Below, piece by piece: positions 20,638 through 26,015 of a stretch of 26,015 nucleotides of DNA. Made by a program: the position numbers and the translations under genes. The stretch is from Candidatus Bathyarchaeia archaeon (GTDB lineage Archaea; Thermoproteota; CALKCG01; B24; DRYS01): contig JAWCGL010000001.1 in NCBI GenBank assembly GCA_038857155.1, positions 573-26,587 on the forward strand, read 5' to 3'. The notes below the pieces were generated by a model. That model searched no databases and was not told the DNA's origin. It saw only the letters and a list, made by a program, of their open reading frames with translations. The number at the start of each line of letters is the position of its first letter. The stretch's first letter is position 1.

Positions 20638-21804
20638 ATGCATAGTTTGCGGATCTGCATCGTGGATCTATGCTTAACCTACCTACTACTCGCCTCTATA
20701 GCTATCGGATCATATATACCGTCCAATACTGGGTTGAGGTATCTCGAGTATAAGGTTTATGAGATTAAGGATGTAGCTACCCTAACCTATCTAGGTTCTA
20801 ATAGGACTGTCTACGTAGATTGGCTTGTCCCGGTGAATAATAGCCATCAGATATCCTATGTGCTCGAATTGAACACTGGAATATACGAGAGGTTTACGGA
20901 TAGATGGGGTAACACCATCTATAGGTTTAAGATCGATCTAGACGTGTATGGATCGACGTTTAGGTTGGAGGGGAGGTATCGCGTCGTATGCTATAGTACA
21001 GTTTCAGCAGTAGATACCGGGGGGTACGGTAGGGTAGAGGATATAGATCTCGATTATGTGGATCCGGTATATCTTGCTCCAAGCTATTGGTGGAATTTCA
21101 CGGATCCCGCTATATCTAAGCTTCTCGAAGAGATTAGATTACCCATAATCAAGGATTCCCGTATCGATGTGTTGATCGGAGAAGCTAAGAGGATCGTCAA
21201 TTCTAAGCTATCGTATAGGAGGATCGAGGAGAGGTTAGGTGCATCAGAAGCTTTGAGGAGGGGTTACGGGGATTGTTCAGAATTCTCAGATCTCCTAATA
21301 TCTCTAGCTAGAGGTTTAGGTATACCTGCTCGAAGGGTTTTAGGTGTGTATATCGAGGATTCCGAGGTTAAAGGTTGGCATGCGTGGGTCGAGGTGTGGA
21401 GTCCCTCCCTCGGATGGATACCTATAGAAGCTACCGATCCATTACCCCCGGTCAAGCCTCTAGGCTATATAACATCGAACTATCTAGCTCTATACGTCGA
21501 GGGATACCAGGAGGATACCGTAGATGAGGAGTTTAGGGATGAAGAAATAGTATTCGATGTTAGGCTAGTCGAATATGCCAGGTTGGTGGAGGATCCGTAT
21601 ATTAGGGTTGCTAGGGATCTCGCTATATCGGTATCTATAGCTGTATTAGCTATAGTCGTTATCCATATAGCTATGAAGATGTATAGATCTAGGGATATAG
21701 GCTATTCTTCGTATAGCTTGAATTCATCGTGTATCGCCCTCACAGCCTCCTCTCCATCCACCTCCCTGACGACGAAGGATATATTATACTCTGAGGAGCC
21801 TTGA
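20638..21804 (+). CDS. Membrane-anchored transglutaminase-like (cysteine protease fold) protein
   Basis: N-terminal hydrophobic signal/anchor, GDCSEFSDLLISLARGLGIPARRVLG, WHAWVEVW...GWIPIEAT, C-terminal TM LAISVSIAVLAIVVIHIAM. Confidence 0.85.
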   Translation: MHSLRICIVDLCLTYLLLASIAIGSYIPSNTGLRYLEYKVYEIKDVATLTYLGSNRTVYVDWLVPVNNSHQISYVLELNTGIYERFTDRWGNTIYRFKIDLDVYGSTFRLEGRYRVVCYSTVSAVDTGGYGRVEDIDLDYVDPVYLAPSYWWNFTDPAISKLLEEIRLPIIKDSRIDVLIGEAKRIVNSKLSYRRIEERLGASEALRRGYGDCSEFSDLLISLARGLGIPARRVLGVYIEDSEVKGWHAWVEVWSPSLGWIPIEATDPLPPVKPLGYITSNYLALYVEGYQEDTVDEEFRDEEIVFDVRLVEYARLVEDPYIRVARDLAISVSIAVLAIVVIHIAMKMYRSRDIGYSSYSLNSSCIALTASSPSTSLTTKDILYSEEP

Positions 21805-23114
21805 GCTATCATACGTACGTTTATCCCCTTCGAAGCTACAGCTTTAAACACTTTAGCAGCTACACCCGGCGTCCCCCTCATACCTGCTCCTACCACCGAT
21901 ACGACGCATATATCCGGCTCATAGTATACCTGGCTAACCAGAGAGCCTGTAACGCTCGACTCCAAAGCTGCGACAGCTCTATCGAGCGAACCTCTATCGA
22001 TCACCATAGTTATATTGGCTTCGGAGCTACTCTGCGATATCATAAGTATATTCACGCCAGCTCTACCTAAAGCTTCGAAAACCTTAGCCGCTACACCTGG
22101 TAAACCGACCATACCCGTCCCTTCGACTGCTAGGAGGGCTAAATCCCTTATCAAAACGACGGTTTTAACTATACGTCTATCGACCTCGGGTCTACCAGGC
22201 CCTATAGACGTCCCACGCTTACTAGTATCGAATAGATTCCTAACCCTGACTGGGATACCTCGCGAAGCTATAGGATCGAACACCCTCGGATGCAAGCCTT
22301 TAACGCTAAACCTAGCTAGCTCTACAGCCTCCTCATAGCTTAGCTTATCGATAGTCCTAGCCTCCTCCTCGATCATAGGATCAGCCGTCATTATACCGTC
22401 TACATGCGTCCATAGGTAAACCTCCTCAGCATCTAGACATGCAGCTAGAATCGTAGCCGTATAATCTGCTCCGCCGCGTCCAAGTGTAGTTATACAGCCA
22501 TCTATCGTCGCGCCTGAGAAGCCGGCTACTACAGGGGTTACATCACGATCTATCAGAGGCTTCAACCTCCTAGAAACCTCAACTCTCGTATTCTCTATCA
22601 ACGGATTAGCATCCCCGAATCTTCCATCCGTAACTATACCCGCCTCCCACCCCGCTAGAGCTACGCTATCAATCCCCCCCTCAGTAAGCTTACCAGATAC
22701 TATGATAGCGGATAGAACCTCCCCTATCGAAGCTATATAGTCTCTAACCTTAGCTGTAACCTCTCTAAGCTTTAGACACGTGTAGGATATAGATTTTACC
22801 CCCTCCACCACCTCCTCGATCCTTCTAAGGGCAGCCTCCCTAGCTTCGATACCATTTAGCGTTTCCATCGCTAGCTTTACATGCATCTCTCTGATCCAAT
22901 CTATGTACCCCCACACTCTATCTTCGACACCTAGCTCTACCTCTCTGCATAGGGATAGAAGCTTATCGGTTACCCCTTCTACAGCGGCTACGACGATTAC
23001 CAGCCTATAGCCTCTACTCAATGCATCCCTTACGATGCCCACTATCCTCTCCATACCGTCGGCTGTAGCTACGCATCTCTCACCAAACTTATAGACTAGA
23101 ATCCTACTGCTCAC
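21702..23114 (-). CDS. Aspartate kinase homologue with two ACT domains and degenerate catalytic motifs
   Basis: AAK fold (TTLGRGG, GIMTADP, LSYEEA.ELA, LHPR) plus two well-conserved ACT repeats (MISQSSSEANI; VVGAGMRG.PGVAAKVF...MIAQGSSEYNISFVV). GTG start at 23114 with RBS GAGGGGTGA. Confidence 0.85.
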   Translation of the reverse strand: MSSRILVYKFGERCVATADGMERIVGIVRDALSRGYRLVIVVAAVEGVTDKLLSLCREVELGVEDRVWGYIDWIREMHVKLAMETLNGIEAREAALRRIEEVVEGVKSISYTCLKLREVTAKVRDYIASIGEVLSAIIVSGKLTEGGIDSVALAGWEAGIVTDGRFGDANPLIENTRVEVSRRLKPLIDRDVTPVVAGFSGATIDGCITTLGRGGADYTATILAACLDAEEVYLWTHVDGIMTADPMIEEEARTIDKLSYEEAVELARFSVKGLHPRVFDPIASRGIPVRVRNLFDTSKRGTSIGPGRPEVDRRIVKTVVLIRDLALLAVEGTGMVGLPGVAAKVFEALGRAGVNILMISQSSSEANITMVIDRGSLDRAVAALESSVTGSLVSQVYYEPDICVVSVVGAGMRGTPGVAAKVFKAVASKGINVRMIAQGSSEYNISFVVREVDGEEAVRAIHDEFKLYEE

Positions 23115-24399
23115 GATGCGTATCACCCCTCTTCGGAGATCCGTGTAGAGCTTTAAGCTTAGCAAGCTCGTCTACGAGCATAGGTAGGAATACTCCTACA
23201 TCCGATACTATACCTATCGATTGAGCTGTCCCTCTATCAAGAAGCTTAACCGGTACAGCCGGGTTTATATCTACGCATACAACTTTAACTGTAGATGGTA
23301 TCATATTTCCTACAGCTATAGAGTGTAGCATAGATGCTAGCATCAAAACTAGGTTAGCATCCCTAAGATGCTCTCTATACGCCTTCTGTGCTTCAACCAT
23401 ATCCGTTATAACATCTGGTATTGGACCATCATCTCTTATCGAGCCTGCTAGTATATAGGGTACACCGTTAACTATGCATTCGTAGAATATCCCCCTCCTC
23501 AGTACACCCTTCTCGACCGCTCCACGTAGACCTCCACATTTCATCACTTCGTTTATAGCTACCAAGTGGTTCTTATTTCCACCAGGTATCCTATACCCTT
23601 CATCTACCTTGAACCCGAGCGATGTACCGAATAGAGCGTATTCTACATCGTGAACCGCTAACGCGTTACCGGATAATAAAGCATCGACGAACCCCATACG
23701 GATCATACGTGCTAGATGCTCACCTCCACCTGTATGTACCACCGCAGGTCCTGCTACGACTACTATCCTACCTCCAGACGCCTTCACATTATACATTTCT
23801 TCAGCTATCCTCTTAACTATAGTTGGTGTAGGCTTCTCGGGTGAAGCTCTACTACTCATAAACTCGAAGATACCTGCACCAGTCCTAGGGTATTCTGGAA
23901 GCTTAACCCTAACACCCTCATCGCCTACGACTATAAGATCGCCTCTACGTACATCCCTAATACCCTTACAACAGGCTCTACCGGCTATAGGATCTACCAC
24001 TATAACTTTATCCATGCATATGTCCTCGACTTGAATCCATCTACCCCTATATCTTATCCATGTAGGATGGTTCGTAGTAGCGTAGAATCCATCCGGTAGA
24101 ACCATATCCTCCAGGGCTTCCTCCAGCCTAACATCCTCTACGTATACTGGTAGAGCTCCTAAACTTCTAAGCTCTTTAAGTATATATTCGAGGTGATCGC
24201 GGCTTCTACCCTTAACCATTATCTTAGCGTAGCTTGTTTCATCCTTCCTCCTACCTATACGGAAATCTAGTACCTCAAACTCGCCTCCTAAGTCCATGAT
24301 CCTATCGAAAACCTTAGGTAGTATATACGAGTCTATGAGGTGACCTTCAAGCTCGATTATCTCCGTATACTCATCGCCGGGATCCTGGAATGCGACCAC
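23104..24399 (-). CDS. TIGR00300 / LOR-SDH N-domain protein, AgrE/ArgZ-type ornithine cyclodeaminase homologue
   Basis: ELEGHLIDS, PDGFYATTNHPT, MDKVIVV, F.FMSS..SPEKP, VVAGPAVVHTGG, LLSGNALAVHDVE, GTSLG, LAGSIRDDGPIPD, MLHSIAVGN, VCVDINP, KL.DRGT.Q..GIVSDVG.FL. Confidence 0.88.
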   Translation of the reverse strand: MVAFQDPGDEYTEIIELEGHLIDSYILPKVFDRIMDLGGEFEVLDFRIGRRKDETSYAKIMVKGRSRDHLEYILKELRSLGALPVYVEDVRLEEALEDMVLPDGFYATTNHPTWIRYRGRWIQVEDICMDKVIVVDPIAGRACCKGIRDVRRGDLIVVGDEGVRVKLPEYPRTGAGIFEFMSSRASPEKPTPTIVKRIAEEMYNVKASGGRIVVVAGPAVVHTGGGEHLARMIRMGFVDALLSGNALAVHDVEYALFGTSLGFKVDEGYRIPGGNKNHLVAINEVMKCGGLRGAVEKGVLRRGIFYECIVNGVPYILAGSIRDDGPIPDVITDMVEAQKAYREHLRDANLVLMLASMLHSIAVGNMIPSTVKVVCVDINPAVPVKLLDRGTAQSIGIVSDVGVFLPMLVDELAKLKALHGSPKRGDTHREQ

Positions 24400-24550
24400 C
24401 CACCATTAGGATCACCATCTAAACCTATAACCCTACGAAGCAATCACACAATTCATCATAGCTGCTATTTAACGGTTTCCCTCCACGAAGAATTAGGGGA
24501 TAGTTTAATAAAGCTGAACGTTATCCATCGTTATCGGTGGTTTAAGAGGT

Positions 24551-25708
24551 TTGAATCTACGGATTAGATTCCTGGAGGTAGCTAGATTCGGTAAACCGGA
24601 TAGGATACCGCTATCGCTGTGGGGTATTAGACCAGCTACGCTTAAGAGGTGGTGGAGGGAGGGTCTACCTCCTGGGATGGATGCAGCTACATACTTTAGA
24701 TTCGATATATACGGTATGAGGACTTTCAATATAACGTCGTGGCCCTCTGAAGGATTCCAGTGGGAGCCTAGCGATAGGCTTGTAAACCTAGGTCCTATCC
24801 CACCCTTCGAGTATAGGATTCTAAGGGAGGATGATAGGTATAGGGTATGGGTGGATAGTCTAGGTATAACCCAGCTAGGATTCCAAGATGATTGGAGGGA
24901 TGGGTGGAGCGGCTTCGCTACAAGGACATTCATAGATTTCCCTGTTAAGGGTAGGGAGGATTTCGAGCGTATAAAGGGTAAGTATGATCCGTATCATCCA
25001 GATAGGTATCCATCTAGATGGGGGGAGACGGTCGAGTTTTTAAGGAAGAATGACGATGGGAGCTTCCTCATACATATATCGTTGAGAGGCGTGTTCTGGT
25101 GGATCAGGGATATGATGGGGCTGGAGGCTACCCTGATAAGCTTCTTCAAGGATAGACAGCTTATCAGAGATATACTCGATCTATACCTGGATTTCCACGT
25201 CGAAGCTTTGAAGAGGGCTATCGGAGAGGTGGAGGTAGACTATGTTACGCTCAACGAGGATATGGCGTATAAACATGGACCTATGATCTCTCCCAAGATG
25301 TTTAGAGAGTACATCTCCCCGGTTTACCGTGAGCTCATCAAGTTCCTTAAGGATAATGGTGTTAAGATAGTTGTAGTGGATAGCGATGGATACGTCGAGC
25401 CTCTAATACCTGAGCTTCTATCGGTAGGGGTGGATGGTATATCTCCATGCGAAGTAGCCGCAGGTATGGATATAGTAGGGCTTAGGAGGAAGTATCCGAA
25501 TCTCGTTATGATGGGTGGTATAGATAAGAGAATGCTAGCATCATCTAGATCAGATATAGATAGAGAGGTCTACAGGAAGGTCCCGCCGCTAGTGGAGAGT
25601 AGAGGCTACTTTCCAGGTGTAGACCACGCCGTCCCACCAGATGTATCGTTCGAGAATTTCAGCTACTTCGTAGAGCTTCTTAAAAAGCTATGCGGCTGGG
25701 TCGATTAA
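24551..25708 (+). CDS. Uroporphyrinogen decarboxylase / MtaA-CmuA superfamily protein
   Basis: N-terminal PDRIP, NEDMAYKHGPMISPKMFREY, VVVDSDG, GVDGISPCEVAAGMD, MGGIDKR, GYFPGVDHAVPPDVSFENF. TTG start. Confidence 0.85.
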   Translation: MNLRIRFLEVARFGKPDRIPLSLWGIRPATLKRWWREGLPPGMDAATYFRFDIYGMRTFNITSWPSEGFQWEPSDRLVNLGPIPPFEYRILREDDRYRVWVDSLGITQLGFQDDWRDGWSGFATRTFIDFPVKGREDFERIKGKYDPYHPDRYPSRWGETVEFLRKNDDGSFLIHISLRGVFWWIRDMMGLEATLISFFKDRQLIRDILDLYLDFHVEALKRAIGEVEVDYVTLNEDMAYKHGPMISPKMFREYISPVYRELIKFLKDNGVKIVVVDSDGYVEPLIPELLSVGVDGISPCEVAAGMDIVGLRRKYPNLVMMGGIDKRMLASSRSDIDREVYRKVPPLVESRGYFPGVDHAVPPDVSFENFSYFVELLKKLCGWVD

Positions 25709-25725
25709 CCTATAGGTGGCTATCC

Positions 25726-26015
25726 TTGGATAATGGATACTACTCTCTATCGTTAGAGGATCTCTGCGATCTAGCTGTGAAGCTAGGAGCTAAAACCGCT
25801 AGGATCCTAGGATCTGGGGATATCGTAGTCGCAGATTGGGTTCGACTTAAATGTATGTATGGATGTGGTGGCTACGGTGAGAAGCTTACATGCCCACCAT
25901 ACTCTCCGACACCAGAGGAGACTAGGAGGATACTTAGATCGTATGAATACTGTATACTGGTAGAGTTCCCGCCTGAAGCTGATATCCATAGGGTTATGGC
26001 TAGACTTGAGAGGGA
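25726..26015 (+). CDS. DUF2284 family Cys-rich predicted metal-binding protein, truncated at the window end (absent from the ORF track)
   Basis: TTG 25726 with RBS AGGTGG (25714-25719). Open to the end: MDNGYYSLSLEDLCDLAVKLGAKTARIL...WVRLKCMYGCGGYGEKLTCPPYSPTPEETRRILRSY... Confidence 0.85.
   Translation, partial: MDNGYYSLSLEDLCDLAVKLGAKTARILGSGDIVVADWVRLKCMYGCGGYGEKLTCPPYSPTPEETRRILRSYEYCILVEFPPEADIHRVMARLER

Follow-up and report, generated by a model that had tools for sequence, protein, structure and literature searches.

A divergent aspartate kinase homolog encoded behind an ornithine cyclodeaminase

The 26,015-nucleotide stretch of DNA analyzed here (positions 573 to 26,587 of contig JAWCGL010000001.1, assembly GCA_038857155.1; hereafter the window) comes from a 1.23 Mb, 80% complete genome assembly of hot-spring archaea labeled Bathyarchaeia by NCBI. 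On the minus strand, an ornithine cyclodeaminase gene of the TIGR00300 family (23104-24399; 431 amino acids, GTG start) is followed by an overlapping gene for a homolog of aspartate kinase (AK), which extends from 23114 to 21702 and encodes 470 amino acids counted from the GTG at 23114. We refer to the product of this second gene as the AK derivative. It consists of a kinase-like domain of the amino-acid-kinase fold (22164-23114, minus strand), in which active-site residues are altered, and two near-canonical ACT domains with intact glycine-rich ligand loops (21705-22163, minus strand). It is the sole AK homolog of the long, Methanocaldococcus jannaschii-like type in the window's genus, and the replacements in its kinase-like domain, found in all of its close relatives, suggest that it may have ceased to be an aspartate kinase.

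The family assignments come from profile searches. The cyclodeaminase scored 613.3 bits against the NCBIfam model TIGR00300 (cut-off 410.8), whose label is nickel-pincer-nucleotide-dependent ornithine cyclodeaminase, and Pfam divides it into a Saccharop_dh_N domain and an ArgZ-like C-terminal domain. For the AK derivative, Pfam returned AA_kinase at 151.8 bits and ACT_9 at 177 bits, the latter in two stretches. The protein clears the threshold of TIGR00657, a broad subfamily-domain AK model, by a wide margin (408 bits vs. 208.7) but lies just under the cut-offs of its two best-scoring equivalog models, NF004938 (PRK06291; 517.1 vs. 528) and TIGR00656 (400.0 vs. 402.25). A phmmer comparison with the M. 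jannaschii AK (3c1m) gave 41% identity and an E-value of 2e-104, and the AlphaFold 2 (AF2) model, with a predicted local distance difference test score (pLDDT) of 90.8, resembles 3c1m with a template modeling (TM) score of 0.85.

We read the junction of the two genes (23104-23131, minus strand) directly from the sequence and compared it with the junctions at seven loci of the clade to which the AK derivative belongs (defined below). The start codon GTG of the AK derivative occupies 23112-23114 and the stop codon TAG of the cyclodeaminase 23104-23106, giving an overlap of 11 nucleotides. Inside the 3′ end of the cyclodeaminase gene, ahead of this GTG, lies a purine-rich, Shine-Dalgarno-like stretch, GAGGGGTGA (approximately 23123-23131). 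All seven clade loci have an overlap of either 8 or 11 nucleotides with a purine-rich stretch upstream of it, and the start codon 24 nucleotides before the Lys codon is the one start position common to all clade members. The last ~11 codons of the cyclodeaminase, which overlap the AK-derivative gene, specify a basic tail unique to the window's genus. We infer that the overlap couples the translation of the two genes and hence that both proteins are made together. That an 8-11-nucleotide overlap and an internal ribosome-binding stretch have been kept across a synonymous divergence (dS) of ~1 would argue for selected co-expression.

Replacement of active-site residues in the kinase-like domain

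To place these alterations in context, we compared the AK derivative with 115 canonical relatives drawn from a large protein search and with the M. jannaschii enzyme 3c1m; residue numbers are those of the window's protein (P0003). The degenerate type comprises five protein clusters from different samples, found at 77-100% identity, which we call the clade; the next relatives are at most 51% identical. In the AK derivative, KFGG(T/S)S reads KFGERC (23073-23090), VVSA reads VVAA, RGGSD reads RGGAD, WTDV reads WTHV, DP(K/R) reads DPM and FGAK reads FSVK. An initial annotation, made from the sequence of the window alone, had listed these departures, the 11-nucleotide overlap and the near-canonical state of the ACT domains. 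The alignment to 3c1m and the column counts against the canonical relatives bear out every substitution, the direct reading of the junction confirms the overlap, and the ACT domains are indeed little changed: 3 of their 53 highly conserved columns differ, as compared to 12 of 80 in the kinase domain. The same substitutions recur in all five clade members. Because they are common to five clusters from different samples, we rejected sequencing error and strain-specific decay as explanations.

Four of the replaced columns are invariant in 115/115 canonical relatives and changed in 5/5 clade members: G16E, S47A (22986-22988, minus strand, as are all residue coordinates here), S220A (22467-22469) and G274S (22305-22307). 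Judged from these alignments, their joint replacement in all clade members is far beyond chance. The first of them belongs to the altered phosphate loop (E16-R17-C18, 23073-23081), which reads K-F-G-E-(R/K)-C in 5/5 clade members, T/S17 having become Arg or Lys and S18 Cys. In the amino-acid-kinase family, we take the phosphate in transfer to be lined by the Gly-rich loop together with two Ser positions, 47 and 220. Two further changes, D241H (22404-22406) and K251M (22374-22376), fall at the nucleotide site. The former replaces a residue that is Asp in 106 of the 115 canonical relatives; the latter column holds Met or Lys within the clade, one member keeping DPK. Also relative to the canonical set, R/K137 has become Val or Ile in the clade. 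Position 136 (22719-22721) is Glu in all 115 canonical relatives; the clade has, one residue per member, E, G, D, E and E there.

Work on characterized enzymes indicates what these positions do. In E. coli AKIII, K8 and D202 act in catalysis, E119 binds the α-amino group of the substrate and R198 its α-carboxylate, and in the M. jannaschii AK, D239 and R241 bind the nucleotide (PMC4142519). By alignment, the nucleotide-binding Arg/Lys position and the substrate-binding Glu position are thus affected in the AK derivative and its clade. Not every difference is informative: canonical kinases of the sister families vary as well at the Arg of GER and at the Ala of GAK, so changes at those two positions are not diagnostic. 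The clade is further marked by 54 invariant residues that are rare among canonical kinases.

Selection differs between the domains

Ratios of nonsynonymous to synonymous substitution rates (dN/dS) were estimated pairwise by the Nei-Gojobori method, with orthologs from a sister genus as the canonical comparison. Within the window's genus, the AK derivative as a whole has a dN/dS of 0.10-0.15, at dS ~0.3-1.3; the cyclodeaminase has one of 0.06-0.12. Per-domain estimates, which the initial annotation had proposed, are 0.19 for the N-lobe (vs. 0.10 in the canonical orthologs), 0.09 for the C-lobe (vs. 0.04) and 0.058 for the ACT domains (vs. 0.068). The ACT domains are therefore constrained as strongly as in working kinases, whereas the kinase-like domain is relaxed about two-fold yet clearly maintained. 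None of the clade sequences and loci examined has an interrupted reading frame.

The two lobes of the kinase-like domain differ in how much of them is fixed in the clade: 72-88% of columns are clade-invariant in the nucleotide-binding C-lobe, and 20-60% in the N-lobe. Kinase-domain identity between the clade and other families is 39-44%, as compared to 53-59% between canonical families, whereas ACT identity to the sister families is 57-65%, reported as inside the canonical interfamily range of 58-70%. Maximum-likelihood analysis recovers the clade as monophyletic, on the longest branch of the tree; its stem measures 1.0 substitutions per site in the kinase domain vs. 0.45 in the ACT domains. 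The midpoint root falls on this same long branch, so the tree does not fix the exact sister group of the clade.

A former threonine-operon kinase in a new place

The GTDB class to which the window's genome belongs contains 17 species genomes in four families, of which four genomes, three of them 91-95% complete, make up the window's genus. A long, M. jannaschii-type AK homolog is found in 16 of the 17, and most also have a short AK of 415-440 amino acids. The degenerate long form occurs only in the window's genus, in 4/4 genomes; in the other three families, the long AK is of the canonical form. The window's genome also encodes a short AK with all canonical motifs, in a gene that overlaps the adjacent asd, and the remaining three genomes of the genus each have an intact, canonical short AK. 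The second, canonical AK that the initial annotation had suggested looking for is thus present in every genome of the genus.

Gene order suggests where the AK derivative came from. In one sister family (f2), a thrB-thrC-hom-AK operon ends with the canonical long AK, and this operon is convergent to the cyclodeaminase gene, at a distance of 0.6-2.6 kb; linkage of hom and AK is also present in family f4. The window's genus retains the thrB-thrC-hom operon with no AK at its end. Instead, the AK derivative is found next to the cyclodeaminase, and both this neighbor and the gene overlap are kept in all clade members, that is, in one genus only. We also compared coordinates by eye in a phylum sample of 301 genomes, 82 with TIGR00300 and 166 with a long AK: among genomes with both genes, the two are neighbors only in the taxonomic order of the window's genome and co-directional in this genus only, and no adjacency was found outside that order in this sample.

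As the sole long-type AK in the genus, taking the place of the threonine-operon AK of the sister families, the AK derivative is not an extra paralog. Judged from gene order, it is a former threonine-operon kinase that left its operon and was joined anew, behind a gene next to which it had already lain, and a local inversion probably produced the new arrangement. The initial annotation had proposed a dead or re-specialized AK acting as a sensor or regulatory subunit for the cyclodeaminase. Most of the refuting conditions that it named were examined, and wherever there was an answer, it favors this proposal, which is partly supported: the evidence is strong that an AK derivative of non-canonical type is maintained and encoded together with the cyclodeaminase. 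One correction applies, namely that it does not accompany a canonical long AK but replaces one.

Some further features of these loci deserve mention. In f2, a cytidylate-kinase-like gene (L020:5702-6244, in genome G007) lies between the cyclodeaminase and the convergent AK; it is not at that position in the window's genus. Canonical long AK matches interrupted by a single in-frame stop (TAG or TAA) occur in a sister family (G004:C3:19207-20586) and in two genomes of the phylum sample (G193 and G165); these stops may be assembly errors or independent inactivations. At the other end of the AK derivative, a convergent transglutaminase-core gene on the plus strand (20638-21804) shares 103 nucleotides at its 3′ end (21702-21804) with the 3′ end of the AK-derivative gene. 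The identical overlap is called in one relative (L005), and in another (L007) it is only 4 nucleotides.

Upstream, the cyclodeaminase is separated by a 151-nucleotide intergenic region from a divergent gene of the URO-D family (63 bits), which is followed by a gene for a DUF2284 metal-binding protein (24551-26013 for the two). This pair is syntenic in relatives L005 and L007 and may be a methyltransferase-type pair instead of a heme-synthesis gene. Within the intergenic region, TTTATTAAA (24504-24512, minus strand), picked out by eye, is a rather doubtful candidate for a TATA-like box. As for the occurrence of the locus in other data, at least 30% of the sampled words of the window are present in five hot-spring DNA sequencing runs from three studies, and the same search returned no RNA sequencing run with the locus.

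Cofactor genes and proline metabolism

LarB, LarC and LarE are the makers of the nickel-pincer cofactor. Families f2 and f4 have all three in 11/11 genomes, and none has a match over the cut-off in the window's genus (0/4, including the three genomes that are 91-95% complete) or in family f3 (0/2). A high-scoring TIGR00300 gene is nonetheless kept in 17/17 class genomes, and the cyclodeaminase of the window's genus is 64-72% identical to the copies in the Lar-bearing sister families. The cyclodeaminases of the two Lar-less families have one changed column in common and no shared remodeling. According to Desguin 2025, as cited in PMC13524815, cyclodeaminases of the TIGR00300 family use the nickel-pincer cofactor in an adenine-dinucleotide form; Lar-less families with a well-conserved TIGR00300 protein therefore raise the question of which cofactor is used, which may be relevant to the nickel-pincer enzyme field. 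We considered and rejected the idea that the change in the AK compensates for loss of the nickel-pincer machinery: family f3 is Lar-less yet has a canonical, unlinked long AK, so Lar loss alone does not explain the AK change, and we found no specific link between the two.

For the proline branch, ProC (pyrroline-5-carboxylate reductase) is encoded in the window's genus (G000:C64:5137-5922), in genus g2 and in family f4. None of the 17 class genomes has ProA, and ProB was not found in the five genomes searched. The idea that the AK derivative is a new glutamate 5-kinase feeding ProC is accordingly unsupported: ProA and ProB were not found, and the pattern of ProC tracks neither the Lar genes nor the AK change.

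A possible amino-acid-sensing partner for the cyclodeaminase

The explanation that we tentatively favor, at a probability somewhat short of even, is that the AK derivative is a selectively maintained descendant of the threonine-operon AK that is no longer an aspartate kinase and serves as a non-catalytic, amino-acid-sensing partner. In the ancestor of the genus, the long AK lost residues that line the phosphoryl-transfer center and the nucleotide site: the second Gly and the Thr/Ser-Ser of KFGG(T/S)S, the Ser in both VVSA and RGGSD, the WTDV Asp and the FGAK Gly. Phosphorylation of aspartate was probably lost as well, and from then on the Glu that binds the α-amino group could vary. Purifying selection continued to act on the fold and most of all on the two ACT domains, and the gene now sits directly behind the TIGR00300 cyclodeaminase gene, with the 8-11-nucleotide overlap and the internal ribosome-binding stretch. 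Synthesis of the aspartate family is covered by the separate canonical short AK and the intact thrB-thrC-hom operon. The ACT dimer would bind an amino acid, whether the threonine of its ancestors or a ligand new to it, for instance proline or ornithine; as a scaffold, the kinase-like domain would relay the ligand signal to the cyclodeaminase or to ornithine/proline metabolism.

A more specific form of this explanation is possible, if doubtful: that an AK has turned into a full-length pseudoenzyme acting as an amino-acid-responsive allosteric subunit of the ornithine cyclodeaminase, the first AK-derived regulatory pseudoenzyme, in a lineage that lost nickel-pincer synthesis. More speculatively still, the retained nucleotide-binding lobe might help the cyclodeaminase to use a different dinucleotide cofactor.

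Several observations weigh against a non-catalytic partner. K13 and D221 (the equivalents of the catalytic Lys and Asp), R217 (the substrate-carboxylate Arg) and K276 are kept in all clade members, so the active site is eroded only in part, and with the catalytic Lys and Asp equivalents in place, "dead" is an inferred description. Given these residues and a conserved C-lobe, the protein may still bind nucleotide or carry out a modified kinase chemistry. Glutamate 5-kinases are active although they do not have the second loop glycine, and G16E by itself is therefore no proof of death. The synteny of the AK and cyclodeaminase genes is conserved within a single genus in which the flanking genes are syntenic too; it thus amounts to one evolutionary event and is weak as independent evidence. 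Prediction of a complex between the cyclodeaminase and the AK derivative gave a score of 0.00, which we read as no verdict, neither way, on binding. Finally, there is no obvious metabolic logic that joins a threonine-type sensor to an ornithine cyclodeaminase.

The main rival, which we consider unlikely, is a re-specialized enzyme: the new, clade-invariant Glu16, Arg/Lys17, Cys18, His241 and Ser274 would make up an active site of another kind on the amino-acid-kinase fold, and the protein would phosphorylate another substrate or carry out another nucleotide-dependent step in the cyclodeaminase pathway. The replacements are specific and chemically reactive, fixed in 5/5 members, and do not look like random losses; K13, D221 and K276 are kept, as is D249; the C-lobe has a dN/dS of 0.09; 54 residues are invariant in the clade and rare in canonical kinases; and the operon ties the AK derivative to an enzyme that converts ornithine to proline. 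The substrate-binding N-lobe is, however, the least constrained part of the protein (dN/dS 0.19; 20-60% invariant columns), and an enzyme with a defined amino-acid substrate would not be expected to vary, as the clade does, between E, G and D at the α-amino-binding Glu. For the particular case of a glutamate 5-kinase, the partner was not found (ProA in 0/17 class genomes, ProB in 0/5 searched). A less radical version of retained catalysis, in which the protein still functions as an aspartate kinase isozyme, though its active site is unusual, and came to lie in the cyclodeaminase operon by chance, is in our estimation very unlikely. It would account for the retention of the substrate Arg and of the residues equivalent to the catalytic Lys and Asp, for the TIGR00657 score (408 vs. 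208.7 bits) and for the strong purifying selection. It does not sit well with the simultaneous replacement of four columns that are invariant in 115/115 canonical relatives, with D241H and K251M at the nucleotide site, with the loss of the Asp-binding Glu listed for one member, or with scores under the cut-offs of the two best equivalog models; moreover, the gene no longer lies with hom, thrC and thrB, and each genome of the genus has kept a canonical AK.

If the AK derivative is a regulator, its target might also be a different one. That it is an ACT-domain regulator of, for example, the short AK or homoserine dehydrogenase, its operon position being incidental to a local rearrangement, we regard as quite unlikely. 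Its descent from a threonine-pathway enzyme and the unchanged constraint on its ACT domains fit such a role, the AK and cyclodeaminase genes were already neighbors before the change, as seen in sister family f2, and the co-fold, being without a verdict, gave no support to cyclodeaminase binding; on the other hand, the overlap and the internal ribosome-binding stretch have been kept across dS ~1, and no evidence points toward another partner. The remaining alternative, a slowly decaying relic with no function, is already strongly disfavored, and we consider it highly improbable. The canonical AK would make such a relic redundant, and constraint on its kinase domain is indeed relaxed about two-fold, but at dS up to ~1.3 no broken frame occurs in any of the clade sequences and loci examined, the overall dN/dS is 0.10-0.15, and the ACT value of 0.058 is at the level of working kinases.

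Should the sensing-partner explanation be correct, a feedback-regulated enzyme would have been recycled as a stand-alone regulator of a different pathway, from ornithine to proline. Our literature searches returned no report of a catalytically degenerate AK or of an AK-derived pseudoenzyme, and as far as those searches show, pseudoenzymes derived from amino-acid kinases are apparently undescribed. The history of this one is readable, with the ancestral canonical kinase still in the threonine operon of a sister family, near the cyclodeaminase, and the derived state fixed in one genus, and selection on it can be measured domain by domain.

Comparison with known systems

The closest point of reference is the threonine-sensitive, monofunctional AK of M. 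jannaschii (3c1m, 3c1n and 2hmf; PRK06291 type). Like it, the AK derivative combines two ACT domains, their loops conserved, with a preceding kinase domain that contains a helical insert, and the orthologs of the AK derivative in sister families sit in a thrB-thrC-hom operon. The AK derivative differs in that invariant residues of the phosphate loop, the phosphoryl-transfer center and the nucleotide site are replaced, in that it scores below the PRK06291 cut-off, and in that its gene lies away from the threonine genes and overlaps a cyclodeaminase gene instead.

A second parallel is with ACT-only regulatory subunits, namely the β subunit of the Corynebacterium and Thermus AKs (2dtj and 2dt9) and IlvN, the small subunit of acetohydroxyacid synthase (AHAS), for which the gene for the ACT module adjoins or overlaps that of the regulated enzyme. 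In a structure search, the ACT domains of the AK derivative matched structures of ACT-only subunits (ranks 45-49). Unlike in those systems, the kinase-like domain has not been dropped: the AK derivative retains it at full length and under selection, and its putative partner is an unrelated enzyme rather than an AK.

The upstream gene, for its part, resembles cyclodeaminases of the ArgZ-AgrE C-terminal type, as its TIGR00300 score of 613 bits implies. It differs from them in belonging to a Lar-less genus, in carrying a short C-terminal tail and in its putative translational coupling to the AK derivative.

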